A DNA stretch of 29,596 bases from an uncultured Gammaproteobacteria bacterium. GTDB taxonomy: Bacteria > Patescibacteriota > Patescibacteriia > Patescibacteriales > WJLG01. Positions 502 through 29,596 of this stretch are shown here, one piece after another. The notes beneath the pieces were generated by a model, which saw only the letters and a program-made list of their open reading frames with translations, made no database searches and was not told the origin of the DNA. The translations under genes and the position numbers were made by a program. Numbering within the stretch: position 1 is the first letter of the stretch; every line of letters begins with the position of its first letter. The DNA lies in contig CAZALZ010000013.1 in the NCBI GenBank assembly GCA_964486475.1, positions 1 to 29,596 of the forward strand, written 5' to 3'.

Positions 502-531
502 ATTAAGCTAAACTGCTAAAATAACAATAAT

Positions 532-2397: not shown

Positions 2398-2403
2398 TTT
2401 TTT

Positions 2404-2430
2404 AAAAGCGGTCCCAGCGGCCGCTTTTTT
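2404..2430 (+). terminator. rho-independent terminator after alaS
   Basis: AAAGCGG-tcccagcgg-CCGCTTTTTT sits 7 nt after the alaS stop. Confidence 0.6.
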
Positions 2431-2473
2431 GAAAATATTCCACAAAACCGGCAATCGTGATATTATAAAACAT

Positions 2474-3562: not shown

Positions 3563-3575
3563 GCCGGATTTTTAC
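3552..3575 (+). terminator. rho-independent terminator after the PGI/PMI gene
   Basis: CCGGC-aattaa-GCCGG followed by ATTTTT. It overlaps the stop codon region. Confidence 0.6.
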
Positions 3576-3650
3576 TGGTAGTCCCTATGGGAGTCGAACC
3601 CATCTTTTCAGGATGAAAACCTGATGTCCTAACCGATAGACGAAGGGACC
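3576..3650 (-). tRNA. tRNA-Glu (anticodon UUC), CCA encoded
   Basis: The reverse complement is GGTCCCTTCGTCTATCGGTTAGGACATCAGGTTTTCATCCTGAAAAGATGGGTTCGACTCCCATAGGGACTACCA. Acceptor GGTCCCT/AGGGACT. Anticodon stem TCAGG/CCTGA with loop TTTTCAT gives TTC. T-loop GGTTCGACTCC. Confidence 0.9.
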
Positions 3651-3672
3651 GCTTTGCGATTATTGATTTACG

Positions 3673-3688
3673 TCCGCCAGCCGGCGGA
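3673..3688. repeat. GC mini-hairpin TCCGCC-agcc-GGCGGA (first of three related copies)
   Basis: Perfect 6-bp arms. Related hairpins: GTCCGCC-caa-GGCGGAC at 4017-4033 and CCGCCC-a-GGGCGG at 4970-4982. Confidence 0.5.
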
Positions 3689-3712
3689 TTTGAATTGCGA
3701 TTTAGTTTCTAT

Positions 3713-3747
3713 AAAATAAAATCAGCCTTGAGCTGGATTTTATTTTT
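3713..3747. other. terminator-like AT-rich hairpin between divergent tRNA-Glu and tsaD
   Basis: AAAATAAAATCAGC-cttga-GCTGgATTTTATTTT is a 14-bp stem with one bulge, then a T run. No upstream gene on either strand needs terminating here. Confidence 0.35.
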
Positions 3748-3793
3748 AAACTATGATAATAATATAAATGATAATTTAATATTAGTCAATAGT

Positions 3794-4855
3794 ATGATAA
3801 TTTTAGGGATAGAAACAAGTTGCGATGAGACAGCCGCCAGTGTGGTTGATGGTAAAGGAAATAGCGTTAAAGTGCTTTCCAATGTGGTTTCTTCGCAGAT
3901 AGAAATTCATAAAAAATATAATGGCGTGGTGCCGGAAATAGCGGCGCGCGAACATGTTTTAAATATTTTGCCGGTTGTGAATGAGGCTTTGCTTAAAGCC
4001 GGTATAAACCCTCCCCGTCCGCCCAAGGCGGACACCTCTCCAAAGAGGGGAATTAAATTAGACGCTATTGCAATAACGGCCGGACCGGGGTTGATAACTT
4101 CGCTTTTAGTCGGCGTGGAAACCGCCAAGACTTTGGCGTATTCCTGGAATTTGCCTTTAATCGGCGTCAACCATATAGAGGGCCACATCCGCGCGAATTT
4201 TATAAACAACGACGAAAAGATAAAATTGCCGGCGATAATTCTGACTGTTTCCGGCGGACACACGATGCTGGTTTTGATGGATAAAAAAAATAAATTCAAA
4301 ATTATCGGCGAGACGCGCGACGATGCGGCCGGCGAAGCTTTTGATAAAGCGGCTAAGCTTTTGAATCTCGGTTATCCGGGCGGGCCGATAGTTTCTAAAA
4401 CAGCTAAAGAGTTTAATTCTGCTCCGAGAGAAGATATAAAACTGCCGCGGCCGATGTTAAATGACAAAAATTTTGACTTTTCTTTTTCTGGTCTTAAAAC
4501 TGCCCTGCTTTATAAAATAAAAAAAGATGATAGTTGGCAAAAGCGCGTGCCGGAATATTGTTATGAATTTGAGCGCGCGGTTGTAGAAACTTTGGTCGGG
4601 AAAATGATCAAAGCGGCGAAAAAATATCAGGCCAAAACCGTAATGCTTTCCGGCGGCGTGTCGGCCAATTCGGTTTTACGGGAAGAATTTATCAAGGCGG
4701 CTGAGAAAGAAAAATTAAATTATCATATTCCAGAATTGCAATACACGACCGATAATGCCGCCATGATCGCCGCGGCCGGATATTTCCGCGCGAAAGAAAA
4801 AAAGTTCACGCCCTGGAAAAATATCAAAGCTGACTGCAATTTAGAGCTTAAATAA
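3794..4855 (+). CDS. tsaD: tRNA N6-adenosine threonylcarbamoyltransferase TsaD
   Basis: MIILGIETSCDETAASVV, TAGPGL, NHIEGH, DDAAGEAFDKAAKLL, GLDFSFSGLKT-like and GGVSAN motifs. Start set at ATG 3794; the track extension (3695) has no homology-like content. Confidence 0.92.
   Translation: MIILGIETSCDETAASVVDGKGNSVKVLSNVVSSQIEIHKKYNGVVPEIAAREHVLNILPVVNEALLKAGINPPRPPKADTSPKRGIKLDAIAITAGPGLITSLLVGVETAKTLAYSWNLPLIGVNHIEGHIRANFINNDEKIKLPAIILTVSGGHTMLVLMDKKNKFKIIGETRDDAAGEAFDKAAKLLNLGYPGGPIVSKTAKEFNSAPREDIKLPRPMLNDKNFDFSFSGLKTALLYKIKKDDSWQKRVPEYCYEFERAVVETLVGKMIKAAKKYQAKTVMLSGGVSANSVLREEFIKAAEKEKLNYHIPELQYTTDNAAMIAAAGYFRAKEKKFTPWKNIKADCNLELK
4008..4054 (+). repeat. palindromic repeat element copy A, in frame inside tsaD
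   Basis: CCCTCCCC-GTCCGCC-caa-GGCGGAC-a-CCTCT-ccaa-AGAGGGGAATT. It shares the 11-mer AGAGGGGAATT with 19226-19236 and 28975-28985. It encodes NPPRPPKADTSPKRG. Confidence 0.7.
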
Positions 4856-4995
4856 TTGTCATTCCGATGCGAAGCGAGGAATCTGTAAAACCGTTTTGAA
4901 AATTACTGACGCACAATCTATTATCACAAGACAAATTTTATCGCGCGCAGGATTAAGACAGATCCTTCTCCGCCCAGGGCGGATCAGGATGACAA
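4856..4995. repeat. MITE-like element with imperfect terminal inverted repeats, each end a nested hairpin
   Basis: Left end is TTGTCATTCCGATGCGAAGCGAGGAATCTGT. The reverse complement of the right end is TTGTCATCCTGATCCGCCCTGGGCGGAGAAGGATCTGT. Left hairpin ATTCC...GGAAT (4861-4882). Right hairpin ATCCT-tct-CCGCCC-a-GGGCGG-atc-AGGAT (4962-4990). Confidence 0.55.
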
Positions 4996-5006
4996 AATAA
5001 AACAAT

Positions 5007-5207
5007 ATGCGAACAGAACCGCCATTCAATATTGAAACTTTGCCGAATCCTTACGAGATTAAACCGGTGGAAAAAATCCATCTGGTTGATAATGACCAAT
5101 TAAAAGAGGACGAAGCGGAATGGAAAAAAAGAAAAAACCAAAAGAGATCCGTTTTACCGCCGGATCCTTTCGGCGAGAAAGGAAATAAAATAGATATTTT
5201 AGGATAA
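5007..5207 (+). CDS. hypothetical small protein (66 aa)
   Basis: ORF only; no recognisable motif and no clear SD. It starts 12 nt after the MITE-like element. Confidence 0.35.
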   Translation: MRTEPPFNIETLPNPYEIKPVEKIHLVDNDQLKEDEAEWKKRKNQKRSVLPPDPFGEKGNKIDILG

Positions 5208-5239
5208 AAAAAGACAGGATCCGCTAGTGCGAGATCCTG
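5206..5239 (-). terminator. rho-independent terminator for the 5280..5924 gene (weakly bidirectional)
   Basis: CAGGATC-CGC-tagt-GCG-a-GATCCTG at 5215-5239. The A run at 5206-5212 gives a T run on the minus strand. Confidence 0.65.
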
Positions 5240-5279
5240 CTTAGTTAAGGCTGTATAATTCAACGTCTACCGTAATATT

Positions 5280-5924
5280 TTATTCCGCATGACTTTTTAT
5301 AAAATTTCTTACCTCGGGCGATATTCCACCTGTTTCATCTGCATTTTCAGCTGTCACCGAGAGTTCTTGTACTGTCGGATCAGCATCGGTTCCATTATGA
5401 AAATCAAATCTAAAGAATTCACCATTGCTATTCTGCCCCCAAAATGAATTATTGTCGATATTGTCTTGCATTACATTTTTTACTTTGCCAATCTTCTCCT
5501 CCATTTTTGATATTATTTTAACAGTCCATTCACCCTCGCTTTTTTCTGGTTCACTTGAAGATTCACTGATAAAATATATTCCTTGGTTCTCATGATGTTT
5601 TTCTTGTGCTTCAACGAGAGCTGGTGAAATTAAAGAAACGGCTACGGTGGCAATTTTTAAATAGCAATTAATTCTATTTCGAAATTTTTCTACTTTTGAA
5701 GAAATAAAATTTTTTAAATTTTCCGGCCCACCTGTTTTTTGAGATAATTTTTCAACCTCTTTTGCGATTTCTTCTTCTCCAACGCTTTCTTTTTCCATTC
5801 TTTCCGTTAATATGTCTAAAGCCTCTTCTGTTTTTGAAGTATTTTCCAGATTTTCCATTTCAGAAGTTGATTTATCCACCACTTCTCTTTTTGTTGGGTC
5901 AAATTTTTCAAATTCATTTTCCAT
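5280..5924 (-). CDS. hypothetical protein: acidic N-terminal half, one central hydrophobic segment
   Basis: 214-aa ORF with an E/K-rich N-terminus and a hydrophobic stretch IATVAVSLISPALV. No recognised family. Visibly more AT-rich than neighbouring housekeeping genes. Confidence 0.6.
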   Translation of the reverse strand: MENEFEKFDPTKREVVDKSTSEMENLENTSKTEEALDILTERMEKESVGEEEIAKEVEKLSQKTGGPENLKNFISSKVEKFRNRINCYLKIATVAVSLISPALVEAQEKHHENQGIYFISESSSEPEKSEGEWTVKIISKMEEKIGKVKNVMQDNIDNNSFWGQNSNGEFFRFDFHNGTDADPTVQELSVTAENADETGGISPEVRNFIKSHAE

Positions 5925-5989
5925 ACTTTTTGCTATTATAGGTTAATTATACTAATAGTATAGCATAACAAACGTTATTTAGTCAACCG

Positions 5990-6019
5990 AAAAGCGGCTT
6001 TTTAAAAAGAGCCGCTTTT
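5990..6019 (-). terminator. bidirectional rho-independent terminator after ppsA
   Basis: AAAAGCGGCT-ttttaaaaag-AGCCGCTTTT, a near-perfect palindrome 10 nt past the ppsA stop. Confidence 0.7.
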
Positions 6020-6029
6020 AAAATATTTT

Positions 6030-8402
6030 TTATTTTTTTCTCTTTTCAACCTTCAGCACATTCATCGTTGTATCAATCACGGTATCAGGGATTAGAGAAA
6101 TGGAATCGATTTTTTCTTTGACCAGAAATTCCACGAAATCCGGGAAGTCGGACGGAGCTTGTCCGCAAATGCCGACTTTAGTTTTGGTCTTCTTGGCGAT
6201 GCGGATCAGCTCTTTTATTAAAACCTTAACGGCATCATTTTTTTCATTGGAAATTCCAGCCACGCCGAGCATGCTGCCGGAATCGCGATCAATTCCAAGA
6301 GTAAGCTGAGTTAAATCATTGGAACCGATAGAAAAGCCGTCAAATTCTTCAGCGAATTGGTCGGCTAAAATTATATTTGCCGGAATTTCGGCCATGACGT
6401 AAATTTGCAAACCGTCTTTGCCGCGTATCAAGCCGCGTTTAGCCATAAGTGCTTTTACTTTTTGGCCTTCTTCTACCGTGCGGCAGAAGGGGATCATTAT
6501 TTTTAAATTTTTCAGCCCCATTTCTTGGCGGACTTTTTTCATGGCTTGGCATTCCAAATCAAAAGCCGGGATGAATTTTGGCGTGTAATAACGGTTTGCG
6601 CCGCGCCAGCCGATCATCGGATTGGATTCTTTCGGTTCGTATTGCGCGCCGCCGATTAGGTTGGCGTATTCGTTGGTTTTAAAATCCGACAGACGGATGA
6701 TGCAATCTTTAGGATAAACCGAAGCGGCGATCATGGCTACGCCTTCGGCCATTTTTTCCACGAAAAATTGTTTCTTGTCTTTGTGGCCGATTGTAATTTT
6801 ATCTATTTGCGCTTTAATCGTCGCCGGCTGTTTGGCGTAATTTATCAAGGCCAGCGGATGGATTTTGATATAGTTGTTGATGATAAATTCCAAACGCGCC
6901 AAACCGATGCCATCATTCGGGACAAAGGAAGTGGCAAGCGCCATATCCGGTTCGCCGACATTCATCATTATTTTTGTTTTAGGCCGTTTTAGATTTTTAA
7001 TGTTTGATTTGATTATTTTAAAAGGTAATATTCCTTTATAAACAAAACCGTTTTCTCCCTCGGCGCAAGAAACTGTTACGCTTTGCCCGCTGGAAAGCTT
7101 GGTAGAGGCGTTATTGGCTCCGACCACGCAAGGTATCCCGAGCTCGCGCGAAACGATCGCGGCATGGCAAGTCCGCCCGCCTTTATCAGTAATGATGGCT
7201 GAAGCTATTTTCATAATCGGCTCCCAATCCGGATCAGTCATGTCGGTTACTAAAACTTGTCCCGGCTTAAATGATTTTATTCCAGAAACTTCCATAATGC
7301 GGTTAACAATACCGGCGCCGACTTTATTACCGACCGACTGGCCGCTAACCAAAATTTCGCTGCGCTTGTTGATTTTGTATTTTTCCACGATATTGTAATC
7401 GCGCTGGCTTTGCACGGTTTCCGGTCTGGCTTGGATGATATAAAGTTTGCGGGTGCGGCCGTCCATAGCCCATTCCATATCCATTGGTTTATTGTAATGT
7501 TTTTCGATCTCTATTGCCCAATCTGCCAATTTTAAAGCTTCGGCATCGGTGATGGATTGTTTAATGCGTTCTTCCGCCGGAACGGAAATATTTTTAACAG
7601 GGTTGTCGCGGCTGTTATTATATATCATTCTTAGATCTTTTTTCCCGATTTTTTTAGAAATAATGGCGCGCGTCGGCTTGAAGACTAAAAATTCATCAGG
7701 ATTAACTCGTCCTTGCACGATATTTTCACCCAAACCGTAGATGGAGTGGACTAAAACCGTATTTTTAAAGCCGGACTCGGTGTCAATGGAAAACATTACC
7801 CCGGAACAGCCCGTATCCGCGCGGACCATAGTTTGCACGCCGACCGATAAAGCTATTTTAAAATGATCAAAACCTTTGTCGGCGCGATAGGAAATGGCGC
7901 GGTTGGTGAAAAGAGATGCAATGCATTCCTTGACCGCCTCCAAGAGCTGGCGCTCGCCGCGGATATTTAAAAAAGTTTCCTGCTGGCCGGCGAACGAAGC
8001 GTCCGGCAAATCTTCGGCCGTAGCCGAGGAGCGGACAGCTACATCCAAAACGCTGCGTTTTTCTGATTTGCAAAGTTTTTTGTAAGAAGAAACAATCTCT
8101 TTTTTTAATCCTTCCGGCAACTCCGCTTTTAAAATGGCGGCGCGGACTTTTTTGCCGTGATCCATTAGATTGGTTACGTTTTTCGTGTTTAAAGTTTTTA
8201 GAATTTTTTTAATATCCGTTTTTAAGCCGGTTTCCTCCATAAAAAAATTATAAGCTTCGGCCGTGGTGGCGAAGCCGTTGGGAACAGCGATTTTTTTCTT
8301 GGCTAACAAAGAATACATTTCTCCCAGAGAGGCGTTTTTCCCTCCAACCTGCGGCACGTCTTTAATGCGAAGCTCGCTAAAAAATTTAATGAATTTAGAC
8401 AT
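6030..8402 (-). CDS. ppsA: phosphoenolpyruvate synthase (pyruvate, water dikinase)
   Basis: 790 aa. N-terminus VGGKNASLGEM, phosphohistidine swivel motif GGRTCHAAIVSRELGIPCVVG, C-terminal PEP-utilising TIM-barrel motifs (FSIGSNDLTQ). Confidence 0.93.
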   Translation of the reverse strand: MSKFIKFFSELRIKDVPQVGGKNASLGEMYSLLAKKKIAVPNGFATTAEAYNFFMEETGLKTDIKKILKTLNTKNVTNLMDHGKKVRAAILKAELPEGLKKEIVSSYKKLCKSEKRSVLDVAVRSSATAEDLPDASFAGQQETFLNIRGERQLLEAVKECIASLFTNRAISYRADKGFDHFKIALSVGVQTMVRADTGCSGVMFSIDTESGFKNTVLVHSIYGLGENIVQGRVNPDEFLVFKPTRAIISKKIGKKDLRMIYNNSRDNPVKNISVPAEERIKQSITDAEALKLADWAIEIEKHYNKPMDMEWAMDGRTRKLYIIQARPETVQSQRDYNIVEKYKINKRSEILVSGQSVGNKVGAGIVNRIMEVSGIKSFKPGQVLVTDMTDPDWEPIMKIASAIITDKGGRTCHAAIVSRELGIPCVVGANNASTKLSSGQSVTVSCAEGENGFVYKGILPFKIIKSNIKNLKRPKTKIMMNVGEPDMALATSFVPNDGIGLARLEFIINNYIKIHPLALINYAKQPATIKAQIDKITIGHKDKKQFFVEKMAEGVAMIAASVYPKDCIIRLSDFKTNEYANLIGGAQYEPKESNPMIGWRGANRYYTPKFIPAFDLECQAMKKVRQEMGLKNLKIMIPFCRTVEEGQKVKALMAKRGLIRGKDGLQIYVMAEIPANIILADQFAEEFDGFSIGSNDLTQLTLGIDRDSGSMLGVAGISNEKNDAVKVLIKELIRIAKKTKTKVGICGQAPSDFPDFVEFLVKEKIDSISLIPDTVIDTTMNVLKVEKRKK

Positions 8403-8410
8403 AAGTAAAG

Positions 8411-8469
8411 GTAATATGCAGCAAGTAGTATGTAGTATGGGACGCCATACCGCACAAACTATTCCACTG
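8411..8469. repeat. heptad-repeat hairpin element, copy E1 (between the DUF4870-like gene stop and the ppsA start)
   Basis: GTAATATG-CAGCAAG-TAGTATG-TAGTATG-G-gacg-CCATAC-CGCACAAACTATTCCACTG. The core stem is GTATGG/CCATAC. Its left arm is close to copy E4 (ATGCAGCA.G.TAGTATG). Confidence 0.6.
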
Positions 8470-8475
8470 TTTATA

Positions 8476-8796
8476 TTATATTTTTATTTTTTTGCTCCAA
8501 TCGTTAATATAGGGGACTTCCCAGTATTCGCCGGCCAAGACTTTTAATATTCCTATGACCGAAACGATCAAAACAGCCAATCCAATTATTTGTCCAAAAA
8601 AAGGGAACCAGGAAACAAGACTTATAATAAAAAGCACCAATCCTTGTTTGGCGTGGAATTGGCAGAATTTGGAATCTTTTTTTGTTAAAAGCGGAATCAG
8701 AAACAATATCCAAACATAAGAAAGAGCGGCGGAGTGTTTGTTGTTTTCCGCGTCTTTTTTTTCCATAGCAGATAAAACTTTTTTTTCTCTGGGCAT
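8476..8796 (-). CDS. small membrane protein, DUF4870-like
   Basis: MPREKK...AALSYVWILFLIPLL...FHAKQGLVLFIISLV... has two or three TM segments and the HAKQ motif typical of that family. Start moved to ATG 8796 because the track start (8880) overlaps tRNA-Leu. Confidence 0.6.
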   Translation of the reverse strand: MPREKKVLSAMEKKDAENNKHSAALSYVWILFLIPLLTKKDSKFCQFHAKQGLVLFIISLVSWFPFFGQIIGLAVLIVSVIGILKVLAGEYWEVPYINDWSKKIKI

Positions 8797-8811
8797 AGAA
8801 TTGATTTTTAG

Positions 8812-8840
8812 TTGATTATTTGTTATCTTTATATTACTAT
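8812..8840 (+). promoter_or_regulatory. candidate promoter for tRNA-Leu (TTGATT-17 nt-TACTAT)
   Basis: The -35 is at 8812-8817 and the -10 at 8835-8840, 10 nt before the tRNA 5' end. Confidence 0.4.
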
Positions 8841-8850
8841 AGCATAAATT

Positions 8851-8932
8851 GCGGACGTGGTGAAATTGGTATACACGCATGCCTTAGGAGCATGTGGGGC
8901 AACCCATGAGAGTTCAAGTCTCTCCGTCCGCA
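8851..8932 (+). tRNA. tRNA-Leu (anticodon UAG), long variable arm
   Basis: Acceptor GCGGACG/CGTCCGC. D arm GTG..CAC. Anticodon stem CATGC/GCATG with loop CTTAGGA gives TAG. Variable arm TGGGGCAACCCATGA. T arm GAGAG-TTCAAGT-CTCTC. Discriminator A; only CC follows, so the CCA is not fully encoded. Confidence 0.9.
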
Positions 8933-8989
8933 CCGTTCCTGAATATAATTTTGTACTATAACAATTTAACTTTTTAGGAGGGATAGATA

Positions 8990-9736
8990 ATGGAAAGAGA
9001 ATTTTTGATTCACGGAGAAAATTGTTTTACCGAAACAGAACTTTCGAAGTTCGTGATTGTTAATAATCGTTTAAGTTTTTCAGAGGCCAACAGTTATCGC
9101 AGTAATTCATTTAGGGAGTATGTTTTGAGCGATGAAATTTTAAAAATTCTTCGCGAAAAAAATATTGAACCAAGAAAGGCAGATAGTGAAAACGCTTATG
9201 CTATTAGCGACAATAACCCGGGAGAAGCGGGAAGCAATTGGTTTTTTTATCTGGATCAGTATAAAAAAGGGACATTTGACTTGCGGGTTTCTCTAAGCTT
9301 TTCCGTCGAGATAAAAATTAGAAAGAGAGGCATGGTATTTTATCCGCACGCAGAAGCGTGTAGTTCTAACTGTACTTGCGTCTCTCCGAACAGCCGGTCG
9401 GCAAATTTTCGGATGTTTAAAACCTTAATTGACAATAACGCCGATGATGTTCCTGAGATTGCCAAAAGAATGGCTGCCAGTCCTGACGGACAAGTGGTCG
9501 TTAATTGGACGGAATTAGGTCTCGGCGGATTGAGAACACTAAAAGATATATTCTACAATGAATTTGCAAAGGGGAATGAAGCGGTACAAAAACTTACAAA
9601 AGAAACCATCTTTTTTCCAAATCCTTATAACGATTCACGGTACATAACTGAACAGGTACAGTCGATATTGTTTGATGTTTGGGAAGAACAACTTAAAGAA
9701 TATCGAAATAAACTCTATTCTAACTTTGAAGAATGA
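8990..9736 (+). CDS. hypothetical protein (248 aa), no recognised family
   Basis: Strong SD (AGGAGG about 8 nt upstream) and its own terminator. No recognised motif. Cys cluster HAEACSSNCTC. More AT-rich than the flanking tyrS. Confidence 0.7.
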   Translation: MEREFLIHGENCFTETELSKFVIVNNRLSFSEANSYRSNSFREYVLSDEILKILREKNIEPRKADSENAYAISDNNPGEAGSNWFFYLDQYKKGTFDLRVSLSFSVEIKIRKRGMVFYPHAEACSSNCTCVSPNSRSANFRMFKTLIDNNADDVPEIAKRMAASPDGQVVVNWTELGLGGLRTLKDIFYNEFAKGNEAVQKLTKETIFFPNPYNDSRYITEQVQSILFDVWEEQLKEYRNKLYSNFEE

Positions 9737-9752
9737 TATTCGAGATATTAGC

Positions 9753-9785
9753 AAGCCAGCCAGCAACACATGCTGGCTTTTTAAT
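9753..9785 (+). terminator. rho-independent terminator
   Basis: AAGCCAGC-cagcaacacat-GCTGGCTT followed by TTTTAATTTTT. Confidence 0.7.
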
Positions 9786-9790
9786 TTTTC

Positions 9791-9819
9791 TTGATTTTTT
9801 ATAATATTTTAGTTATTAT
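9791..9819 (+). promoter_or_regulatory. candidate promoter for tyrS (TTGATT-17 nt-TATTAT)
   Basis: Hexamers at 9791-9796 and 9814-9819. AT-rich context. Confidence 0.35.
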
Positions 9820-9846
9820 TAAGTAAAATAGTAATAATTAAAATAT

Positions 9847-11061
9847 ATGTCCAAAGTAATTATTGACAAAGAACTAATTGAAAAATTTTTAACTCGTGGA
9901 GTTGAAGCCGTCTACCCGACAACCGACGAATTAAGGGAAAAATTAATGTCCGGCGAACGTTTACGCGTCTACCAGGGTTTTGATCCGACCGGAAAATATC
10001 TACATGTCGGGCACGCCATGGGAATCCGCGCCTTGCGCATTCTCCAGCAACTCGGACACGAAGTGATATTTTTGGTCGGAGATTACACGGCGCGCATCGG
10101 CGACCCGGACAAAGATACCGGCCGCGAAATGTTGACCGAAAAAGAGATCAAAGAAAATCTGGCCGGCTGGAAAGAACAAGCCGCCCAGATGATTGATTTC
10201 GAAGGCGACAATCCGGTGCGTTTTGCTTTCAATAACGAATGGCTGTCAAAACTGAATTTAAACGACTTGATAAAACTAATGTCCAAAATGACCGTCCAGC
10301 AGATGCTGGAGCGCGATATGTTTGAGCGCCGGATGAAAAACGGCGACCCGATCGGTTTGCACGAATTTATTTATCCTTTAATGCAAGGCTACGACGGCGT
10401 GGCCATGGAAGTGGATTTGGAAATCGGCGGCGCTGACCAGACTTTCAATATGCTCAAGGGTCGCGAAATCGTTAAATCGTATTTGAATAAAGAAAAATTC
10501 GTCCGCGCCAATAAAATGATGGATGCCCCGGACGGCCGCACCATGTCCAAAACCAAAGGCAACGGCATTAATCTGGGCGATTCTTCCGAAGATATGTACG
10601 GGAAAGCCATGTCTTACGGCGACGATAAAATTCTCATGGGACTGGAATTGATCACTGATGTTCCCATGGACGCCATCGCCGAGATAAAAAAAGATTTGGC
10701 TAACGGTGCCAACCCGATGCAATACAAGAAAATGCTGGCTTTTGAAATAGTCAAATGCATCCGCGGCGACGAAGAAGCGGCCCGCGCGCAAAAGCATTTT
10801 GAAGACACGGTGCAGAACAAAGAATTGCCGGCGGAAATCGCCGAACTGAAAATGAAAGCCGGAAATTATCATTTGGTTGATGTTATGGTTGAAGCCGGAT
10901 TAGCCGCCTCTAAAAGCGAGGCCGGACGTTTAATTGATCAAGGCGGAGTTAAGGTTGATAATAAAAAAGCAACCGACAAGGAATGCGAAGTGGCGGTTTC
11001 CGATAAGGAGGTTCTTATCCAAAAAGGCAAGAGAGGATTTGTAAAAATCGTGAAGAAATAA
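9847..11061 (+). CDS. tyrS: tyrosine--tRNA ligase
   Basis: YQGFDPTGKYLHVGHAMG (HIGH-type motif), KMSKTKGN (KMSKS), C-terminal S4-like domain (SKSEAGRLIDQGGVKVDN). Confidence 0.92.
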   Translation: MSKVIIDKELIEKFLTRGVEAVYPTTDELREKLMSGERLRVYQGFDPTGKYLHVGHAMGIRALRILQQLGHEVIFLVGDYTARIGDPDKDTGREMLTEKEIKENLAGWKEQAAQMIDFEGDNPVRFAFNNEWLSKLNLNDLIKLMSKMTVQQMLERDMFERRMKNGDPIGLHEFIYPLMQGYDGVAMEVDLEIGGADQTFNMLKGREIVKSYLNKEKFVRANKMMDAPDGRTMSKTKGNGINLGDSSEDMYGKAMSYGDDKILMGLELITDVPMDAIAEIKKDLANGANPMQYKKMLAFEIVKCIRGDEEAARAQKHFEDTVQNKELPAEIAELKMKAGNYHLVDVMVEAGLAASKSEAGRLIDQGGVKVDNKKATDKECEVAVSDKEVLIQKGKRGFVKIVKK

Positions 11062-11086
11062 AAATATTCAAAAAATACTTCAGTTT

Positions 11087-11131
11087 AAAACCGTGAATAA
11101 ATAGCCATTTTTTTGGTTCGTTCACGGTTTT
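11087..11131 (+). terminator. probable terminator after tyrS
   Basis: AAAACCGTGAA ... TTCACGGTTTT has 11-bp arms but a long 23-nt loop. The T tract is part of the stem end. Confidence 0.45.
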
Positions 11132-11169
11132 ATTGATAAAAAAAGAGTACGATAAAATCAGCAAAAACC

Positions 11170-11198
11170 TTGACATTGTATTACCATTGTAATACATT
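11170..11198 (+). promoter_or_regulatory. TA-operon promoter with overlapping palindromic operator
   Basis: TTGACA at 11170-11175, a 17-nt spacer, TACATT at 11193-11198. A perfect inverted repeat TGTATTAC-catt-GTAATACA (11177-11196) fills the spacer and the -10. Confidence 0.55.
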
Positions 11199-11227
11199 TA
11201 TTATATAACAAATTAAATTAAAAGAAT

Positions 11228-11455
11228 ATGCGCCAGGTATTAAGTTTGTCTTTGCCGGAACAAATAACCAAAGAAATCAAAGCTAATTCCAAAAAAAGAG
11301 GTTTTAGTTCTGTTTCCGGCTATGTGAAGTATCTTTTTGAGCTTGATAAGGATTTGATTTCTGAAAAAGAACTGTTAAATTCCGTCAATGAAGCCAGAGA
11401 AGAATACAAAAGCGGCAAAACCGTTAAAGCTAAATCAATAGCCGATCTTTTATGA
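11228..11455 (+). CDS. type II antitoxin, ribbon-helix-helix/RelB-like (75 aa)
   Basis: Small ORF whose stop overlaps the toxin start by 4 nt (ATGA). The N-terminal beta-strand-like segment VLSLSLPEQITKEIK is typical of RHH antitoxins. Confidence 0.7.
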   Translation: MRQVLSLSLPEQITKEIKANSKKRGFSSVSGYVKYLFELDKDLISEKELLNSVNEAREEYKSGKTVKAKSIADLL

Positions 11456-11724
11456 TAGTAAAGGAAATTCATTATTCCAAAAAATTCGTAAAAGAAATAA
11501 AAAAACTTCCTAAAGAAGTTTTTATTTTGGCCGTAAATAAAGAAGAAATATTTAAAAATAACCCTCTTCACCCTTCTTTGCGTTTGCATGAATTGCACGG
11601 GAAATTTAAAGGAATCTGGTCCATTTCTTTGACGAATAATTATAGAATAATATTCGAACGAATGCCGAATGGCGATATATTATTCATCTCTGTCGGCAAG
11701 CACGATATTTATAAGTATTTATAA
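11452..11724 (+). CDS. type II toxin, RelE/ParE superfamily (90 aa)
   Basis: LHELHGKFKGIWSISLTNNYRIIFERMPNGDILFISVGKHDIY matches the RelE/ParE core pattern (L-G-x-W-S-x-R/L...YRIIY...I-x-I...H-x-x-Y). Confidence 0.75.
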   Translation: MIVKEIHYSKKFVKEIKKLPKEVFILAVNKEEIFKNNPLHPSLRLHELHGKFKGIWSISLTNNYRIIFERMPNGDILFISVGKHDIYKYL

Positions 11725-12156
11725 TTATTGCACAACTGATTTCAAGATAAAGTGGACGATGGAATAAGAGGCGAAGATGACCACCAGTCCGACAACCGCC
11801 CAAGCCAGAATATTGCGGCCTTTTTCGACTTTGCTGTCATTGCCGGCGGCTAGCATCCAAGTGAAGCCGCCGTAGATAAACATAATTAAGGCTAAGGAGC
11901 CGACAATACCCAGAAGGGCGTCAATGATTTTTCCGATTAAGGTCGGGACGTCGGTGACGCCGGCGTTTTCTAAAGGGTTTTTCAAGCTGACGGTGTCGCT
12001 TGAGCCGGAATTAGTAGTATTATCTCCTGATCCGCTTATTGTCGTTCCGTTGCTTCCTGAACCGCTTATAGTTTCAGCCAGTGTTTTATTCACAGAAAAA
12101 AAGCCCACTGACATTAAAATACATATAAAACATATAAAAGCAAATTGTTTGGCCAT
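11725..12156 (-). CDS. secreted T4SS-pilin-like (TrbC/VirB2-like) protein common in CPR genomes
   Basis: Signal peptide MAKQFAFICFICILMSVGFFSVNKTLA and a Ser/Gly/Thr-rich linker. Then NPL...VPTLIGKIIDALLGIVGSLALIMFIYGGFTWMLAAGNDSKVEKGRNILAWAVVGLVVIFASYSIV, two TM helices in the VirB2-like layout. Start set at ATG 12156 (the track start is a TTG). Confidence 0.7.
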   Translation of the reverse strand: MAKQFAFICFICILMSVGFFSVNKTLAETISGSGSNGTTISGSGDNTTNSGSSDTVSLKNPLENAGVTDVPTLIGKIIDALLGIVGSLALIMFIYGGFTWMLAAGNDSKVEKGRNILAWAVVGLVVIFASYSIVHFILKSVVQ

Positions 12157-16628: not shown

Positions 16629-16638
16629 ATAAATATTT

Positions 16639-16707
16639 GTAGCAGGTAGTATGTAGTATGCAGTATGGAATCTAGACCATACTACTTACTACATATTCCA
16701 TACTACC
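16639..16707. repeat. heptad-repeat hairpin element, copy E2 (grpE stop to hsp20 start)
   Basis: TAGCAGG TAGTATG TAGTATG CAGTATG G-aatctaga-C CATACTA CTTACTA CATATTC CATACTA CC. The outer arms GGTAGTATG (16645-53) and CATACTACC (16699-707) are a perfect 9 bp. The inner arms AGTATGG/CCATACT give 7 bp. Confidence 0.75.
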
Positions 16708-16715
16708 AAAATTAT

Positions 16716-17147
16716 ATGCCTAATTTAATTAAATGGAGTCCATTTTTCGACGGGTTCGAAGATATGGACAAAATGTTTTCCGAATTTGTGCCGGTTGTCA
16801 GACGCGGCGACGCTGGCGGGTTTGTTCCGGCTATCGACGTCTATGAAGACAAAGGCAATCTGATCGTGGAAACGCAATTGGCCGGAATCGATCCGGAAAA
16901 AGTTTCCATCGCCATTGAGAATGATGTTTTAACCATCAAGGGCGAGAGCGAAAAGAAAAGCGAAGTCGAGGATAAAGATTATTATAGAAAAGAAATTAGG
17001 CGCGGTTCGTTTTTCCGCACGATCCAGTTGCCGGCCCATGTTGATGGCGATAAAGCTTCGGCCATTTCCGAGTCAGGTATTTTGAAAATTTCTATCCCGA
17101 AGCGGGAAGAATCCCAACCAAAAACAATTAAAATTGAAAAAAAATAA
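16716..17147 (+). CDS. Hsp20/alpha-crystallin family small heat-shock protein
   Basis: Alpha-crystallin domain: PAIDVYEDKGNLIVETQLAGIDPEKVSIAIENDVLTIKGE...RGSFFRTIQLP...GILKISIPK. Start at ATG 16716; the track extension translates the hairpin. Confidence 0.9.
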   Translation: MPNLIKWSPFFDGFEDMDKMFSEFVPVVRRGDAGGFVPAIDVYEDKGNLIVETQLAGIDPEKVSIAIENDVLTIKGESEKKSEVEDKDYYRKEIRRGSFFRTIQLPAHVDGDKASAISESGILKISIPKREESQPKTIKIEKK

Positions 17148-17150
17148 TAT

Positions 17151-17220
17151 TAGCTGTTGGCAATATGTAGTATGTAATATGGAATTTAAACTATACACCA
17201 TACTGCATATCCCATGCTAC
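17151..17220. repeat. heptad-repeat hairpin element, copy E3 (hsp20 stop to dnaK start)
   Basis: TAGCTGTTGG CAATATG TAGTATG TAATATG G-aatttaaa-CTATACA C CATACTG CATATCC CATGCTA C. GTAGTATG (17167-74) pairs with CATACTGC (17199-206), and TAGC (17151-54) pairs with GCTA (17216-19). Confidence 0.7.
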
Positions 17221-17234
17221 AATTATAAAATTCT

Positions 17235-19154
17235 ATGAGTAAAATATTAGGAATCGACCTAGGAACAACTAACAGTGCCATGGCCATAATCGAAGGCGGA
17301 GCGCCTAAGATTCTGGAGAATGCCGAAGGAATGAGAACAACTCCTTCCATTGTCGCAATCTCTAAATCCGGCGAATGGCTGGTTGGCGCTGCGGCTAAAC
17401 GTCAGGCTGTCACCAATCCCGAGAACACCATCTTTGAGATGAAACGTTTGATCGGCCGTCACTTCAATGACGAAGAAGTTCAGCGCGATTTGAAGAATAT
17501 GCCTTACAAGATCGTGCAGGCCGGAGAAGGCGTGAAAATCATTGTTTCCGGAAAAGAATACACTCCGCAGGAAATTTCTGCCAAGGTTTTGGCGAAATTG
17601 AAAGCTGATGCTGAAGCTCGTTTGGGCGAAAAAATTACCGAAGCGATCATTACTGTTCCGGCTTATTTTGATGATTCTCAAAGACAAGCCACTAAGGATG
17701 CTGGTCAGATCGCCGGTTTGAATGTTAAGCGTATCATCAATGAGCCAACCTCAGCCGCTTTGGCTTACGGTTTGGACAAGAAGCACGGCCATCAAATCGT
17801 TGTCTACGATTTGGGCGGCGGAACTTTTGATGTTTCCATTCTTGATGTCGGCGGCGATAGCGTTATGGTTAAAGCAACTAATGGCGACACTCATTTAGGC
17901 GGCGCGGATTTTGACCAGCGCGTTATCAATTGGATTTTAGAAGAATTCCGCAAAGAGGAAGGCGTCGATCTTTCCAAAGATCCGTTGGCTTTGCAGAGAA
18001 TCAAGGAAGCGGCCGAGAAAGCCAAGATCGAATTGTCTTCTTCTATGGAGACAGAAATCAATCAGCCGTTCATAACTGTTGGTGCTGAAGGTCCGAAACA
18101 TTTAGTTAAAAAAATGACTCGCGCGAAATTGGAAGAGTTGGTCGGCGATTTGGTCGAGAAAACCATTGAGCCTTGCAAAAAGGCTTTGACCGATGCCGGT
18201 TTGAAAGTGGAGGATTTGGAAGAAGTTGTTTTGGTTGGCGGTATGACTCGTATGCCAATGGTGCAAAAATTGGTTAAAGACTTCTTTAAGAAAGAACCGA
18301 ATATGTCGGTTAATCCGGACGAAGTGGTTGCAGCTGGCGCCGCTGTTCAGGGCGGTGTCTTGCAGGGTGATGTTAAAGATATTTTGCTTTTGGATGTTAC
18401 TCCGTTGACTTTAGGTATTGAAACTTTGGGCGGCGTGGCCACTCCATTGATTGAACGCAATACCACTATCCCGACTCAAAAATCGCAAATATTTTCTACC
18501 GCAGCTGATTCTCAGACCAGCGTGGAAATCAAAGTCGTTCAAGGCGAACGCCCGATGGCGGCTGACAATAAAGTCCTGGGCAATTTTATGCTCGACGGAA
18601 TTCCGCCGGCTCCTCGCGGCGTTCCACAGGTTGAAGTTAAATTCGACATTGACGCTAACGGAATTCTGAATGTTTCCGCGATGGACAAAGCTTCCGGTAA
18701 AACTCAGAATATTACTATCACTGCTTCTTCCGGACTTTCCAAGGAAGAAGTGGAGAAGATGAAAAAAGAAGCTGAAGCGCACGCCGAGGAAGACAAGAAA
18801 AAGAAAGAAAAAATAGATTTGAAGAATCAGGCCGATGCCGCGGTTTTCCAAACCGAGAAATTGATCAAAGATATGGGCGCGAAAATGTCGCCAGAAGATG
18901 TCAAAACTTTGACCGACCATGTTGAAGATTTGAAAAAGATCAAAGACGGTGATGACATTGAAGCGATCAAAAAGAAATTGGAAGAAATGAACCAGGCTGC
19001 GCAGACCATCGGCGGGAAAATGTACCAATCCGCCCAGGGCGGACAAGCAGCCGGCGCTCAACCGGGAGCTGAACAAGCTGGCGCCGAACAACCAAAGTCC
19101 GAAGATAAAAAAGACGAAGGCCCAGTTGAAGGTGAATACGAGGAGAAAAAGTAA
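17235..19154 (+). CDS. dnaK: molecular chaperone DnaK (Hsp70)
   Basis: [29 protein letters not shown] and the other canonical Hsp70 signatures; 639 aa. Confidence 0.97.
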
Positions 19155-19212: not shown

Positions 19213-19236
19213 AATTCCCCTCTCAAGAGGGGAATT
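19213..19236. repeat. palindromic repeat element copy B (intergenic, perfect 24-bp palindrome)
   Basis: AATTCCCCTCT-ca-AGAGGGGAATT, 5 nt before the ATG at 19242. Confidence 0.8.
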
Positions 19237-21372: not shown

Positions 21373-21444
21373 GTAGCATGCAGCAGATAGTATGGTATAT
21401 GGTTTTTGCAACCGCCATATTACATGCCGCATATTCCATACTAC
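21373..21444. repeat. heptad-repeat hairpin element, copy E4 (DUF3467 stop to dnaJ start)
   Basis: GTAGCATG CAGCAGA TAGTATG GTATATG G-tttttgcaaccg-CCATATTA CATGCCG CATATTC CATACTA C. The outer arms GTAGCATG/CATACTAC match 7 of 8. The inner arms ATATGG/CCATAT give 6 bp. It ends 4 nt before the dnaJ ATG. Confidence 0.7.
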
Positions 21445-21448
21445 AAAA

Positions 21449-22525
21449 ATGAGTAAAGATTATTATAAAATTTTAGGAGTGGAAAGAAGTGCCGGCGCTG
21501 ATGAAGTCAAGAAGGCGTTTTTAAGGTTGGCTCATGAATATCATCCCGATAAGACCGGCGGCGACGATGCGAAATTTAAAGAAATTAATGAGGCCTACCA
21601 AGTTTTGGGAAATAAAGAAAAACGCGCGCAATATGATCAATTCGGCTCGGCGGGACCGAACATGGGAGGATTTGGCGCCGGTCGAGGATTTGGCGGTTTT
21701 CAGGGTGGAGGAATGAATATTAATATGGATGATCTGGGTGAAATGTTCGGGGGATTCGGGGATATTTTCGGTTTTGGCTCTTCTCGCTCTAGTCGCGGAA
21801 AATCAAGGCGCGGAGCAGATATCGAAGCTGAACTGACCGTTGACTTTGAAGAAGCGGTTTTCGGCGCGGAAAAGGAAGTTTCTTTGCGTAAAAAAATAAT
21901 TTGCGATCGTTGCCATGGTTCCGGCGCCGAGCCAGGAGCGAAAATGGAAAACTGCTCCACTTGCGGCGGACGCGGGAGGATTCGTTATGTCCAACAAACC
22001 ATTTTGGGTGATATTCAAACCGAAACCACTTGCCGCGCCTGCAACGGCGAAGGAAAGATTCCTTCTCAGAAATGCGCTAAATGCCACGGGAGCGGGGCAA
22101 TTAATGACAGTGTTAAATTTAAAGTTAAAATTCCGGCCGGCGTGGATGATGGCGGACGCATCCGCTTAGCCGGTTATGGCGAAGCCGGAGATAAAGATGC
22201 CGGTGCCGGTGATTTGTATTTAAATATCCGCGTGCGCCATAGTTCCAAATTTGTCCGAGAAGATTATGATATTCTTACTAAAAAAGAAATAACTTTTACT
22301 CAGGCGGCCTTGGGTGATAAAGTGGAAATTGAAACCATCCACGGTAAAGTGGAGTTGAAAATCCCGGAAGGCACTCAGTCGGGAACGGTTTTCAAATTAA
22401 AAAATAAAGGGATTCCGCATATCGGCAGTAAAATTACGGGCGATCATTTGGTGGAGATCATAATTAAAACGCCTAAAAATTTAACTGGTAAGCAGAAAAA
22501 AACTTTAAAAGAATTAAACATTTAA
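21449..22525 (+). CDS. dnaJ: molecular chaperone DnaJ (type I)
   Basis: J domain (DYYKILGV...YHPDK), G/F-rich region, four CxxCxGxG zinc-finger repeats (CDRCHGSG, CSTCGGRG, CRACNGEG, CAKCHGSG). Start at ATG 21449. Confidence 0.95.
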   Translation: MSKDYYKILGVERSAGADEVKKAFLRLAHEYHPDKTGGDDAKFKEINEAYQVLGNKEKRAQYDQFGSAGPNMGGFGAGRGFGGFQGGGMNINMDDLGEMFGGFGDIFGFGSSRSSRGKSRRGADIEAELTVDFEEAVFGAEKEVSLRKKIICDRCHGSGAEPGAKMENCSTCGGRGRIRYVQQTILGDIQTETTCRACNGEGKIPSQKCAKCHGSGAINDSVKFKVKIPAGVDDGGRIRLAGYGEAGDKDAGAGDLYLNIRVRHSSKFVREDYDILTKKEITFTQAALGDKVEIETIHGKVELKIPEGTQSGTVFKLKNKGIPHIGSKITGDHLVEIIIKTPKNLTGKQKKTLKELNI

Positions 22526-28650: not shown

Positions 28651-29596
28651 CTACATTTCTTCAACCACTTCAATCCCCAACAACCCTAATCCATTTTTTA
28701 TAGTTTCTGAAACAGAATTAAGCAGGGTCAGGCGGGCATTTTTGGTTTCTTCGTCAGCTTGCAAAACCGGAACGGCGTGGTAGTAATCGTTTAACATCTG
28801 TGCCAACTCGTAAATATATTTAGCGATTTCTGATGGGTCGTAATTCTTGCCGGCGGTTTCTATAATTTCTGGATATAAAGCAAGTTTTTTAATTAATTCT
28901 ATTTCTTTATTGTTGTTCAGTTTTTCTGCAAAGTTTAACACATCCCGCCTCGGAGTACAGAACCACCCCTCTCGAGAGGGGAATTCTTTATGAAAAATTG
29001 ATTGTATTCTGGCGTAGGCGTATTGGATGTAGGTAGAGGTGAAACCTTCCAGAGCGAGCGCTTTTTCAATATCAAAAGTGATAATGCTTTTAGCGCCGAC
29101 TTTAAGCATTTCGAATTTCATCGCGCCAACGGCGATTTTTTTGGAATTTTCCAGGATTTTTTCTTCGCTCCAATCTTCATGGCGTTTTTTTGTTTCCGCA
29201 ACGCATTTAGACAGAATATCTTGTTTTAATTCTTTGTAAGTGATGACATTGCCGGTGCGGGAGGACATCATACCGGTTGGAAGTTTAACAAAATCGTAGC
29301 CGAGGTGGACAAAATTTTCTTTGAAGCCGGAGAGTTCAAGAATTTTGAACAGTTGTTTGAAATAAAATTCTTGGCGGATATCAACAATAACAATGGAAGT
29401 ATCAGGGGAAAACCGGCGGTGTTTTTCTTTCGCCAAAGCTAAGTCGGCGACAGCATAAGCGGCGGTGCCGTTAGAGCGCGCAACAACCAAGACGTCCAAG
29501 CCGTATTCTTTTAAGTCGGCGATGATAGCGCCTTCGCTTTTTTTCAGAATGCCTTTTTCCAAAAGGGCCGCTGTGTCTATAACAGAGCCTTTTTCA
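28651..29596 (-). CDS. argS: arginine--tRNA ligase, C-terminal about 315 codons (5' end off window)
   Basis: The frame stays open to the window edge (the track start at 29562 is an internal TTG). MSSRTGNV (KMSKS-equivalent region), YIQYAYARIQSI, C-terminal DALR anticodon-binding domain ending ...GIEVVEEM. Confidence 0.9.
   Translation of the reverse strand, partial: EKGSVIDTAALLEKGILKKSEGAIIADLKEYGLDVLVVARSNGTAAYAVADLALAKEKHRRFSPDTSIVIVDIRQEFYFKQLFKILELSGFKENFVHLGYDFVKLPTGMMSSRTGNVITYKELKQDILSKCVAETKKRHEDWSEEKILENSKKIAVGAMKFEMLKVGAKSIITFDIEKALALEGFTSTYIQYAYARIQSIFHKEFPSREGWFCTPRRDVLNFAEKLNNNKEIELIKKLALYPEIIETAGKNYDPSEIAKYIYELAQMLNDYYHAVPVLQADEETKNARLTLLNSVSETIKNGLGLLGIEVVEEM
28941..28985 (+). 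repeat. palindromic repeat element copy C, inside argS (antisense to the gene)
   Basis: CATCCCGCCTCGGAGTACAGAACCA-CCCCTCT-cg-AGAGGGGAATT. It encodes EFPSREGWFCTPRRD in ArgRS on the minus strand. Confidence 0.65.

Follow-up and report, generated by a model that had tools for sequence, protein, structure and literature searches.

The contig CAZALZ010000013.1 (29,596 nt; assembly GCA_964486475.1, deposited as an uncultured Gammaproteobacteria bacterium and placed by GTDB in Patescibacteriota), hereafter called the window in its whole length, carries a 48-nt palindromic repeat inside argS, the gene for arginyl-tRNA synthetase (ArgRS). We consider it likely that this segment is a solo arm of a dispersed mobile hairpin repeat, which would have inserted into argS and persisted there as a selfish, translated passenger in a permissive loop of the enzyme.

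On the plus strand the arm reads ACACATCCCG-CCTCGGAGTACAGAAC-CA-CCCCTCTCGAGAGGGG-AATT, that is, a head, a spacer, a conserved CA, a core hairpin and a short tail (Table 1). It lies antisense to argS and in frame with it. The minus strand gives the peptide (E)FPSREGWFCTPRRDV(L) within an open reading frame (ORF) that stops at 28651 and is still open at the end of the window; around the arm this ORF reads ...YAYARIQSIFHKEFPSREGWFCTPRRDVLNFAEK..., or, over a longer stretch, ...YAYARIQSIFHKEFPSREGWFCTPRRDVLNFAEKLNNNKEIELIKK.... A reading made from the sequence alone (the sequence-only reading) had placed a palindromic element antisense in argS, just after the codons for YAYARIQSI, at 28941-28985 (CATCCCGCCTCGGAGTACAGAACCACCCCTCTCGAGAGGGGAATT on the plus strand), with a GC-rich 5' flank. 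Location and translation are borne out by the sequence. The coordinates are correct except for the start, which lies 3 nt earlier at 28938, and the flank, which is indeed present, is actually the conserved head of the family, ACACATCCCG, followed by the spacer.

The argS copy is far from what chance would place in the window. With up to three mismatches, CCCCTCTCGAGAGGGG is found twice (19217 and 28966) against 0.02 expected, the pattern CCCTCT-N(0-12)-AGAGGG also twice against 0.00 expected, and the exact 11-mer AGAGGGGAATT at three loci (4044, 19213/19226 and 28975). The argS head is the only match of at least 9/10 to the consensus ACACACCCCG in the whole window, and it precedes the core by 18 nt on the correct strand. 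Despite its coding location the core palindrome is intact (16/16), and the GC content of the arm is 0.58 against 0.41 in the remainder of argS.

We then scanned 185,579 species-representative genomes with the 19-base core CCCCTCTCNAGAGGGGAATT. At least 120 loci were recovered, from which 131 copies were analysed; by our own estimate from the size of the collection, about 4 matches would be expected by chance. Among the matches listed, the hosts span more than 10 phyla. Bacteroidota isolates of the genera Mucilaginibacter, Pontibacter, Flavobacterium, Lutibacter and Pedobacter are represented, some by complete genomes, for example those of Mucilaginibacter sp. SMC90 and E4BP6. Many of the hosts outside Bacteroidota are metagenome-assembled genomes, assigned to Ignavibacteria, Chlorobiota, Patescibacteria/Paceibacterota, Nitrospinota, anammox Planctomycetota and Desulfobacterota, as well as Bacillota, Thermodesulfovibrionia (Nitrospirota), Neomarinimicrobiota, Zixibacteria, Aminicenantes and Pseudomonadota. 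The 19-base core replaced a looser pattern, CCTCT-N(1-6)-AGAGGGGAATT, which in viral contigs had returned 88 single matches, about the number expected by chance by our own estimate.

Arms of the family share one plan, in which a head ACACACCCC is followed in some arms by an inner hairpin, and then by CA, the core CCCCTCTC-N-AGAGGGG and AATT. They are 32-48 nt long and end in AGAGGGGAATT; the AATT tail is variable, and other arms have AACT, AGTT or AAGT in its place. Two sequence variants were seen, ACACACCCC/CCCCTCTC and ACCCACCCC/CCCCTCCC. Three kinds of junction link head and core. In 69 arms it is direct, with 3-6 nt (typically aACACACCCCtaaCCCCTCTCaAGAGGGGAATT); in others it is G-[hairpin]-CA, with a hairpin that varies in sequence and length while its pairing is kept, often with TTC(G) loops; and in Mucilaginibacter specifically it is an unstructured spacer of 22-25 nt. 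Alignment of the flanks places a head ACAC[ACT]C[CT]C upstream of the core in 121 of the 131 copies. Since the search pattern did not include the head, the latter is independent evidence that the argS copy belongs to the family.

Measured against this plan, the argS arm contains the core exactly (28966-28985), which is a circular match since the core was the search pattern, and carries the head ACACATCCCG on the same strand with CA immediately before the core. It falls outside the hairpin class, its spacer CCTCGGAGTACAGAAC having no clean stem; the position held by a stable inner hairpin in other copies is degenerate here. A profile hidden Markov model built for nhmmer from 72 unique arms of other genomes matches the argS arm end to end (model positions 1-45, E=7.1e-8). 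Altogether, the argS segment is, as far as its sequence tells, a member of a real dispersed repeat family. A scan of the window and seven arm-bearing loci at Rfam gathering thresholds returned two tRNAs only and no family for the arm, and a full-text literature search for the repeat sequence gave no match. No account of the repeat, or of the link to DUF559 described below, was found in the literature searched, which dealt with Patescibacteria palindromic elements, DUF559 and homing endonucleases of the Vsr-like kind; this is not proof of novelty.

Arms were also present in 34 stretches of predicted viral contigs, some of them dense, such as an IMG/VR contig with 13 copies in 10 kb (L299), which suggests carriage by phages or proviruses. 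At another locus (L148, 7493-7712) the arm lies within a 100-nt tandem satellite, with three copies exactly 100 nt apart.

We further investigated whether the segment is ancestral to ArgRS. A search of 5.8 billion proteins yielded 552 ArgRS relatives, the top matches all being Patescibacteria-like, and the best 120 were aligned; the FPSREGWFCTPRRD segment is absent from all homologs in this alignment. Its two closest orthologs are P0001 (82% identity), encoded on a contig, L001, that shares synteny with the window over argS, glyS and a glycosyltransferase gene, and P0002 (69%). Both have an unrelated linker that is 7 aa shorter; it reads FRKIINYQSPAINIDFNKL in P0001 against FHKEFPSREGWFCTPRRDVLNFAEKL in the window and has the same length in P0002. 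As DNA, the three genes can be aligned well as far as ...TTYCGNAAA and once more from ...AAACTN..AAAGAAATAGA; between these flanks the window argS has 21 additional nt (7 codons) and unrelated sequence. A net gain of 21 nt with a 48-nt arm means that about 27 nt of ancestral linker were replaced, so that the event was not a simple addition. Identity on the two sides of the arm is 86% and 84% to P0001, and 75% and 74% to P0002, and such equal values argue that the contig is not chimeric. ArgRS from P. horikoshii aligns across the linker without a gap; because the linkers of distant ArgRS are just as long, only close relatives expose the event.

The sequence-only reading had left open whether the segment was an insertion, noting that this region of ArgRS varies in length and proposing an alignment of orthologs around the YAxARxxS run, in which conserved ancestral sequence would have spoken against the idea. 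The region does vary, the linker of the distant P. horikoshii protein being as long and those of close orthologs 7 aa shorter, and no such conservation was seen among the best 120 homologs. The segment thus appears to be an insertion or replacement specific to the lineage of the window.

The site where the arm lies is one that tolerates change. It is the loop that follows the YAYARIQSI helix, where the DALR anticodon-binding domain begins. In an AlphaFold2 model of a 314-aa ArgRS fragment with 46 homologs (mean pLDDT, the model's per-residue confidence, 90.7), the insert residues 205-219 are predicted as coil between helices 187-204 and 217-225, and pLDDT falls to 56 in the block 211-220. Such a structure is consistent with a surface loop, tolerant of change, that leads into the anticodon-binding domain. 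In three ArgRS orthologs from the candidate phyla radiation (P0103, P0073 and P0011), the same linker holds three other GC-rich hairpin inserts, unrelated to the arm; one of them belongs to a GTCATCC...GGATC family that is also found at 4857-4995 of the window. The ArgRS linker is a recurrent landing site, independently entered by at least four different hairpin families.

Further details were noted at these sites. The GTCATCC...GGATC hairpin type lies in frame in the linker of the P0073 gene (L212), as VILEGAERPIGS. In the P0103 gene (L211), the hairpin insert CCTCTGGGCCGGGCCCAACGGGCCGGAGGC follows the YAYARIQSI codons by about 30 nt and is flanked by a 14-nt direct repeat, AATTTCCAATTTCC; this direct repeat resembles a target-site duplication and is the only such signature in this study.

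The hairpin of the argS arm resembles an intrinsic terminator (a GC-rich stem followed by a T-run) in one direction only. The pattern is found on the plus strand, where CCCCTCTCGAGAGGGG is followed by AATTCTTTAT, antisense to argS; no T-run stands behind the hairpin on the argS sense strand. Past the argS copy the plus strand reads AATTCTTTATG, which opens just a 3-codon ORF.

Most copies of the family lie outside genes: 123 of the 131 are intergenic, while 8 have an open frame of at least 60 aa on both sides. Copies in frame include one in a DNA methyltransferase (L129, ...LSFEHTPNPSREGNFEMD...) and others in Ignavibacteria type IX secretion system C-terminal domains (L168 and L185, ...FQIPLSRGVSAEGGRGVSVRLTVYD...). 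All six frames are open in the argS arm and in a second arm of the window, in tsaD. This is a stronger result than the claim of the sequence-only reading, that the element is free of stops in both orientations. When the check that it proposed, a six-frame translation of the consensus, was run on the hairpin class with loop base A, five frames were open and one was closed (FPS*EG), which is exactly the frame used by argS. Loop base counts across the family are A 102, G 16, T 9 and C 4. The argS copy has the minority base G, which gives CGA and avoids the TCT TGA stop that the consensus base A would create; the minority base is what selection against stops would leave. Translational bypass or excision of the insert at the RNA level were considered and set aside as unneeded, since the frame is open. 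The same reading had compared the element to the Rickettsia palindromic elements (RPEs), repeats that persist in ORFs, and the family scan and stop-free frames support this as a likeness in how the element works and not as membership.

Two other copies are present in the window. The second in-frame arm, in tsaD, is laid out as head AACCCTCCCCG, inner hairpin TCCGCC-CAA-GGCGGA, CA, core CCTCTC-CAA-AGAGGGG and AATT; it is of another subtype than the argS arm, with a head also written as ACCCTCCCCG. It forms a clean inner hairpin, unlike the argS arm. Because the two arms differ in head, spacer and core, they are family relatives of which neither was copied from the other. The idea of one and the same element in both genes therefore survives at the level of the family and fails at the level of the subtype.

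Opposite the tsaD arm of the window, TsaD from T. maritima has a 9-aa gap. At the same TsaD site, an insert N[TP]PRP...TPLERG[IL]K, which corresponds to the +1 frame of the arm, is found in about half of the top 50 Patescibacteria orthologs and missing from the other half. The tsaD copy is identical (100%) in an independent Logan assembly (L294), and in L295, a close relative whose nucleotide identity to window 1-11994 is 82-93%, it is decayed. From these comparisons, the tsaD insertion is old, and the argS insertion appears lineage-specific.

The third copy, a core-only perfect palindrome, lies between the stop codon of dnaK (19154) and the next ATG (19242), with a predicted fold energy of -16.7 kcal/mol. 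Its 3' half (AGAGGGG) lies 9-10 nt upstream of this ATG, and the hairpin would bury a GAGGGG that resembles a Shine-Dalgarno sequence. We considered an RNA thermometer that sequesters this site within the heat-shock cluster, and rejected it because the stem (-16.7 kcal/mol) seems too stable.

Table 1. Position and layout of the argS arm, its host gene and the two other copies in the window
Feature	Position	Strand	Remark
Complete solo arm inside argS	28938..28985	+	End-to-end profile match
Head motif ACACATCCCG (family consensus ACACACCCCG)	28938..28947	+	Sole match of at least 9/10 in the window
Variable spacer CCTCGGAGTACAGAAC (16 nt), then conserved CA	28948..28965	+	No clean hairpin
Core hairpin CCCCTCTC-G-AGAGGGG, loop base G	28966..28981	+	Includes an XhoI-like CTCGAG
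AATT tail of the arm	28982..28985	+	Common to all three window copies
argS (arginyl-tRNA synthetase), 3' part	28651..29596	-	PF00750 and PF05746 homologs; PDB 2zue, 6ao8
Second in-frame arm, tsaD, peptide NPPRPPKADTSPKRGI	4007..4054	+ (sense)	Profile E=0.0086, core only
Core-only intergenic copy, perfect 24-nt palindrome AATTCCCCTCTCAAGAGGGGAATT	19213..19236	.	Profile E=6.7e-7

Other palindromes of the window were noted alongside these copies. The GTCATCC...GGATC element at 4857-4995 is intergenic, lies just after tsaD, resembles a MITE (miniature inverted-repeat transposable element) and has the hairpin ends TGTCATTCCGATGCGAAGCGAGGAATCTG ... CAGATCCTTCTCCGCCCAGGGCGGATCAGGATGACA. Window 4845-5990 is unalignable to the close relative L295. 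A second small palindrome, TCCGCCCARGGCGGA, occurs three times (4018-4033, 4969-4984 and 19029-19044; 6 matches over both strands against 0.15 expected), in the inner hairpin of the tsaD arm, in the MITE-like intergenic element and in the low-complexity C-terminal tail of dnaK, respectively. An AT-rich palindromic family, GTAGTATGTAGTATG ... CCATACTACWTACTAC, has copies of 31-94 nt at 8410-8440, 16632-16713, 17144-17226 and 21376-21450. All are intergenic, three of them between genes of the hrcA-grpE-hsp20-dnaK-...-dnaJ cluster, and they could be shared terminators or operators of heat-shock genes.

We next asked which genes accompany the arms. When ORFs in the neighbourhood of the 131 copies were clustered, a single neighbour stood out as clearly recurrent, a protein of about 125 aa present at 12 loci, and no transposase or other gene family recurs beside the arms. 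The neighbour belongs to DUF559 (PF04480, E=1e-27), which a review groups with Vsr and a group I intron homing endonuclease (PMC3424549). Against PDB, the DUF559 profile matches 3hrl (E=6e-25) and 3r3p, the catalytic domain of I-Bth0305I (E=1e-4); D57, E62, E68 and H74 are invariant. The 871 kb of loci contain 12 detectable DUF559 genes, and 11 of these have an arm no more than 61 nt away. The DUF559 gene is bracketed: the arm before its ATG is inverted, AATTCCCCTCTTGAGAGGGG-TTA-GGGGTGTGT, and stops 10-100 nt short of it, and a forward arm begins at or just past the stop codon (L138, L145, L177, L180 and L142). At the first of these loci, about 10 nt separate the arm from the ATG, and the stop codon abuts the other arm.

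The association was also tested in the reverse direction, by fetching 80 metagenome loci by similarity to the DUF559 protein alone and seeking arms within 250 nt of the gene. Arms were found on both sides at 47 loci, on one side at 16 and on neither at 17. The strict geometry, with an arm in minus orientation upstream and one in plus orientation downstream, was present at 34 of the 80, in units of 438-665 bp (median 491). On a Patescibacteria contig that is syntenic with the window over PGI, TsaD, PPDK, TyrRS and a type IV secretion system pilin (L329), a DUF559 gene lies between hairpin-class arms whose variant, ACCCACCCC/CCCCTCCCAAGAGGGG, is also that of the in-frame tsaD arm there. Considering how 182 arms are arranged, 109 are solo, 54 head-to-head and 19 tail-to-tail; 36 arms stand in pairs no more than 60 nt apart, as head-to-head doublets with short spacers and no gene, for instance in Patescibacteria loci L092 and L136.

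At three DUF559 loci (L225, L234 and L235), the sequences outside the two arms are reverse-complementary (e.g. gagtgtagct ... agctacactc). The whole unit thus lies within a larger palindrome, possibly because the loop of an older hairpin was its insertion site. In two syntenic relatives, L329 (3719-4057) and the contig of P0142 (9488-9742), a small gene for a GIY-YIG nuclease (84-112 aa) was seen immediately upstream of tsaD, and none in the window, which makes it a further small stand-alone nuclease at a site that varies; on L329 an arm (3568-3610) lies between the genes for SOD and this GIY-YIG nuclease.

These observations can be arranged as follows. After the split from its nearest sampled relatives, an arm would have entered the variable surface loop behind the YAxARxxSI helix of ArgRS through a mobility event, with a net gain of 7 codons and replacement of ancestral linker sequence. 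The insert would now be transcribed and translated within ArgRS as FPSREGWFCTPRRDV. It may persist because the loop tolerates changes in length and sequence, because the loop base G leaves no in-frame stop, and because the lack of a T-run in the argS sense direction keeps it from being terminator-like. No benefit to the host would be required, and the insert is probably neutral in function, behaving as selfish DNA in the manner of the Rickettsia RPEs. The likely engine would be the DUF559 endonuclease, a Vsr-like PD-(D/E)XK enzyme of about 125 aa, cutting or nicking at the arms; its gene, bracketed head-to-head by inverted arms, would form a unit of about 0.45-0.65 kb, and solo arms and gene-less doublets would be its non-autonomous derivatives or footprints.

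Several points weigh against this account. Because the window's own core served to retrieve the family, matches to the core are circular, and the argS spacer is unfolded, unlike that of most hairpin-class arms. Neither a target-site duplication nor a clean pair of empty and filled sites was found at the window copies or at the 34 canonical DUF559 units, and a net gain of 21 nt for a 48-nt arm is not what a simple insertion would give, the old linker having been lost or overwritten in part. With its nearest ortholog just 82% identical, the argS event is timed coarsely. Translation of the insert is read from the continuity of the ORF. As for the engine, 17 of the 80 DUF559 metagenome loci have no arms, and neither a DUF559 gene nor any other arm (at E<0.1) was found in the window, L001 or L295.

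How the arms move is inferred. In a tentative model, to which we give somewhat less than even odds, the arms are the ends or recognition sites of minimal mobile elements of about 0.45-0.65 kb that encode DUF559 only, spread horizontally across more than 10 phyla, and leave gene-less arms that seed doublets and insertions such as those in argS and tsaD. It is rather unlikely, but less so than the other alternatives below, that DUF559 is instead a free-standing homing endonuclease that parasitises the arms, cutting the centre of head-to-head doublets and being copied into the break, while the arms, including the argS copy, spread otherwise, by an enzyme acting in trans or by recombination or templated repair. 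This would account for the many gene-less head-to-head doublets (the 36 closely paired arms), for the DUF559 gene sitting exactly where the doublet spacer would be, as at L138, for a window with arms and no DUF559, and for the relation of the family to the EDxHD homing endonuclease I-Bth0305I (PMC3239194, PMC2677866). However, it leaves unexplained the spread of conserved solo arms (109 of 182) across phyla, and no other candidate enzyme recurs beside the arms. The matching variants of the DUF559-flanking and tsaD arms on L329 fit either model, and the two models cannot be separated because no target duplications or empty/filled pairs were found.

The other alternatives concern the argS segment itself. 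That the hairpin was kept in argS for a use, be it to stop antisense transcription, to act on translation or stability of the mRNA or to alter ArgRS through the peptide, is improbable in our view. An intact 16/16 palindrome in coding sequence, a terminator-like plus strand (CCCCTCTCGAGAGGGG, then AATTCTTTAT) and a tsaD insert kept at one site across many Patescibacteria speak for such a role; yet the insert is in no other ArgRS examined (best 120 of 552), unrelated hairpins at the same site in other lineages point to a permissive site and not to a required function, the AlphaFold2 confidence of the insert is low, the tsaD copy is decaying in L295, and no nearby plus-strand gene needs termination. 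We give very little credence to an ancestral linker that came to resemble the repeat by chance or by convergent use of GC-rich codons. The variable length of the linker and the ungapped alignment of P. horikoshii leave some room for it, but it is contradicted by the end-to-end profile match (E=7e-8), by a head that is unique in the window and correctly placed in strand and distance (18 nt upstream of the core), by the absence of the segment from the closest orthologs and by the occurrence of the identical core elsewhere in the window, outside coding sequence and in opposite orientation. An assembly artefact, either two argS fragments joined into a chimera through a repeat or spurious sequence, seems just as improbable as that. 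In its favour, the window comes from a metagenome assembly, where repeats can lead to false joins; a second, independent assembly with this argS was not found, and the neighbouring GlyRS protein has no record in the assemblies searched. Against this stand the equal flank identities to P0001 and to P0002, the preserved frame, the tsaD copy on the same contig that is 100% identical in the independent Logan assembly, and the presence of the family in complete genomes of isolates, for example on Mucilaginibacter chromosomes. A solo arm of a mobile repeat thus remains the reading that we favour for the argS segment.

If this reading holds, selfish DNA inside essential proteins, as known from Rickettsia, also occurs in the reduced genomes of Patescibacteria, with two housekeeping enzymes affected within a single window of 30 kb. 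Conservation of sequence over many phyla is unusual for elements that resemble REPs or MITEs, and implies horizontal spread or a conserved protein partner. The tight, reciprocal association with DUF559 suggests a function that can be tested for this large domain family, whose role is unknown, and possibly a new type of mobile element that encodes a nuclease only; if true, DUF559 would drive a repeat system that crosses phyla, or parasitise it by homing. For practical work, these inserts make proteins look more divergent than they are and create spurious 'PLSRGE/SPLERG/IPLLRGV' peptides, and they can seed mis-assembly and mis-annotation in metagenome-assembled genomes.

Compared with known systems, the closest likeness in behaviour is to the RPEs. 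According to Ogata and colleagues in 2000, these are reportedly palindromic selfish repeats, found between genes and also in frame in essential genes, where they are translated. They measure about 100-150 bp and are not known outside Rickettsia, and we know of no enzyme firmly linked to them. Like RPEs, which are mentioned in PMC10969869 and PMC1779305, the arm enters ORFs in frame in either orientation without stops (antisense in argS, sense in tsaD) and at permissive surface sites. It is set apart by its length of 32-48 nt, by its hosts in more than 10 phyla and by its link to DUF559; length and host are the grounds for treating it as a likeness and not as a member.

In genomic anatomy the arms are nearer to REPs and REPINs, which are short GC-rich hairpins that occur as singlets and inverted doublets, and in which a small enzyme gene is flanked by inverted copies (PMC3116915, PMC3733652). 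Singlets, inverted doublets and a gene between inverted arms are found here in the same geometry as in REPIN-RAYT systems. However, none of the 131 aligned arms has the GTAG or CGTC tag used as a criterion for REPs (PMC3733652), the arms instead starting with ACACACCCC and ending with AGAGGGGAATT. The flanked gene also differs, RAYT being a Y1 HUH transposase of the IS200/IS605 type and DUF559 a Vsr-like PD-(D/E)XK nuclease. While REP families are lineage-specific and extragenic, the arm family crosses phyla and enters ORFs.

The nuclease itself recalls the lineage of EDxHD or Vsr-like homing endonucleases, with I-Bth0305I and the 'fractured gene' enzymes, of which free-standing members are known (PMC3239194, PMC2677866). 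Its profile matches the catalytic domain (3r3p, E=1e-4) of I-Bth0305I, and it shares the E-x-D-G-x-x-H region. Unlike the genes of that lineage, the DUF559 genes encode a protein of only about 125 aa without the NUMOD or helix-turn-helix N-terminal DNA-binding region, and they lie outside introns and inteins, between dispersed arms. The position of the gene between the heads of a doublet is suggestive of site-specific cleavage and copying by DUF559.

MITEs and other small sequences in genes (Correia, ERIC and RU-1/2/3) are also small, non-autonomous elements with inverted ends, sometimes intragenic and open in several frames (PMC2759123, PMC2229807, PMC10969869). For the arms, in contrast, no parent with a DDE transposase and no target-site duplication was detected, and a single hairpin arm stands against 100-300 bp with terminal inverted repeats. 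The GC-rich hairpin clusters known from genes of fungal mitochondria are likewise short palindromes, and enter coding sequence in a genome that is richer in AT. For organelle genes, palindromic repeats have been described (PMC2670323). Those of fungal mitochondria differ from the arm in being organellar and unrelated in sequence, and some need translational bypass, whereas the argS insert is open in frame. Altogether, the arm represents an RPE-like phenomenon with a REPIN-like genomic anatomy, and is a member of neither group.

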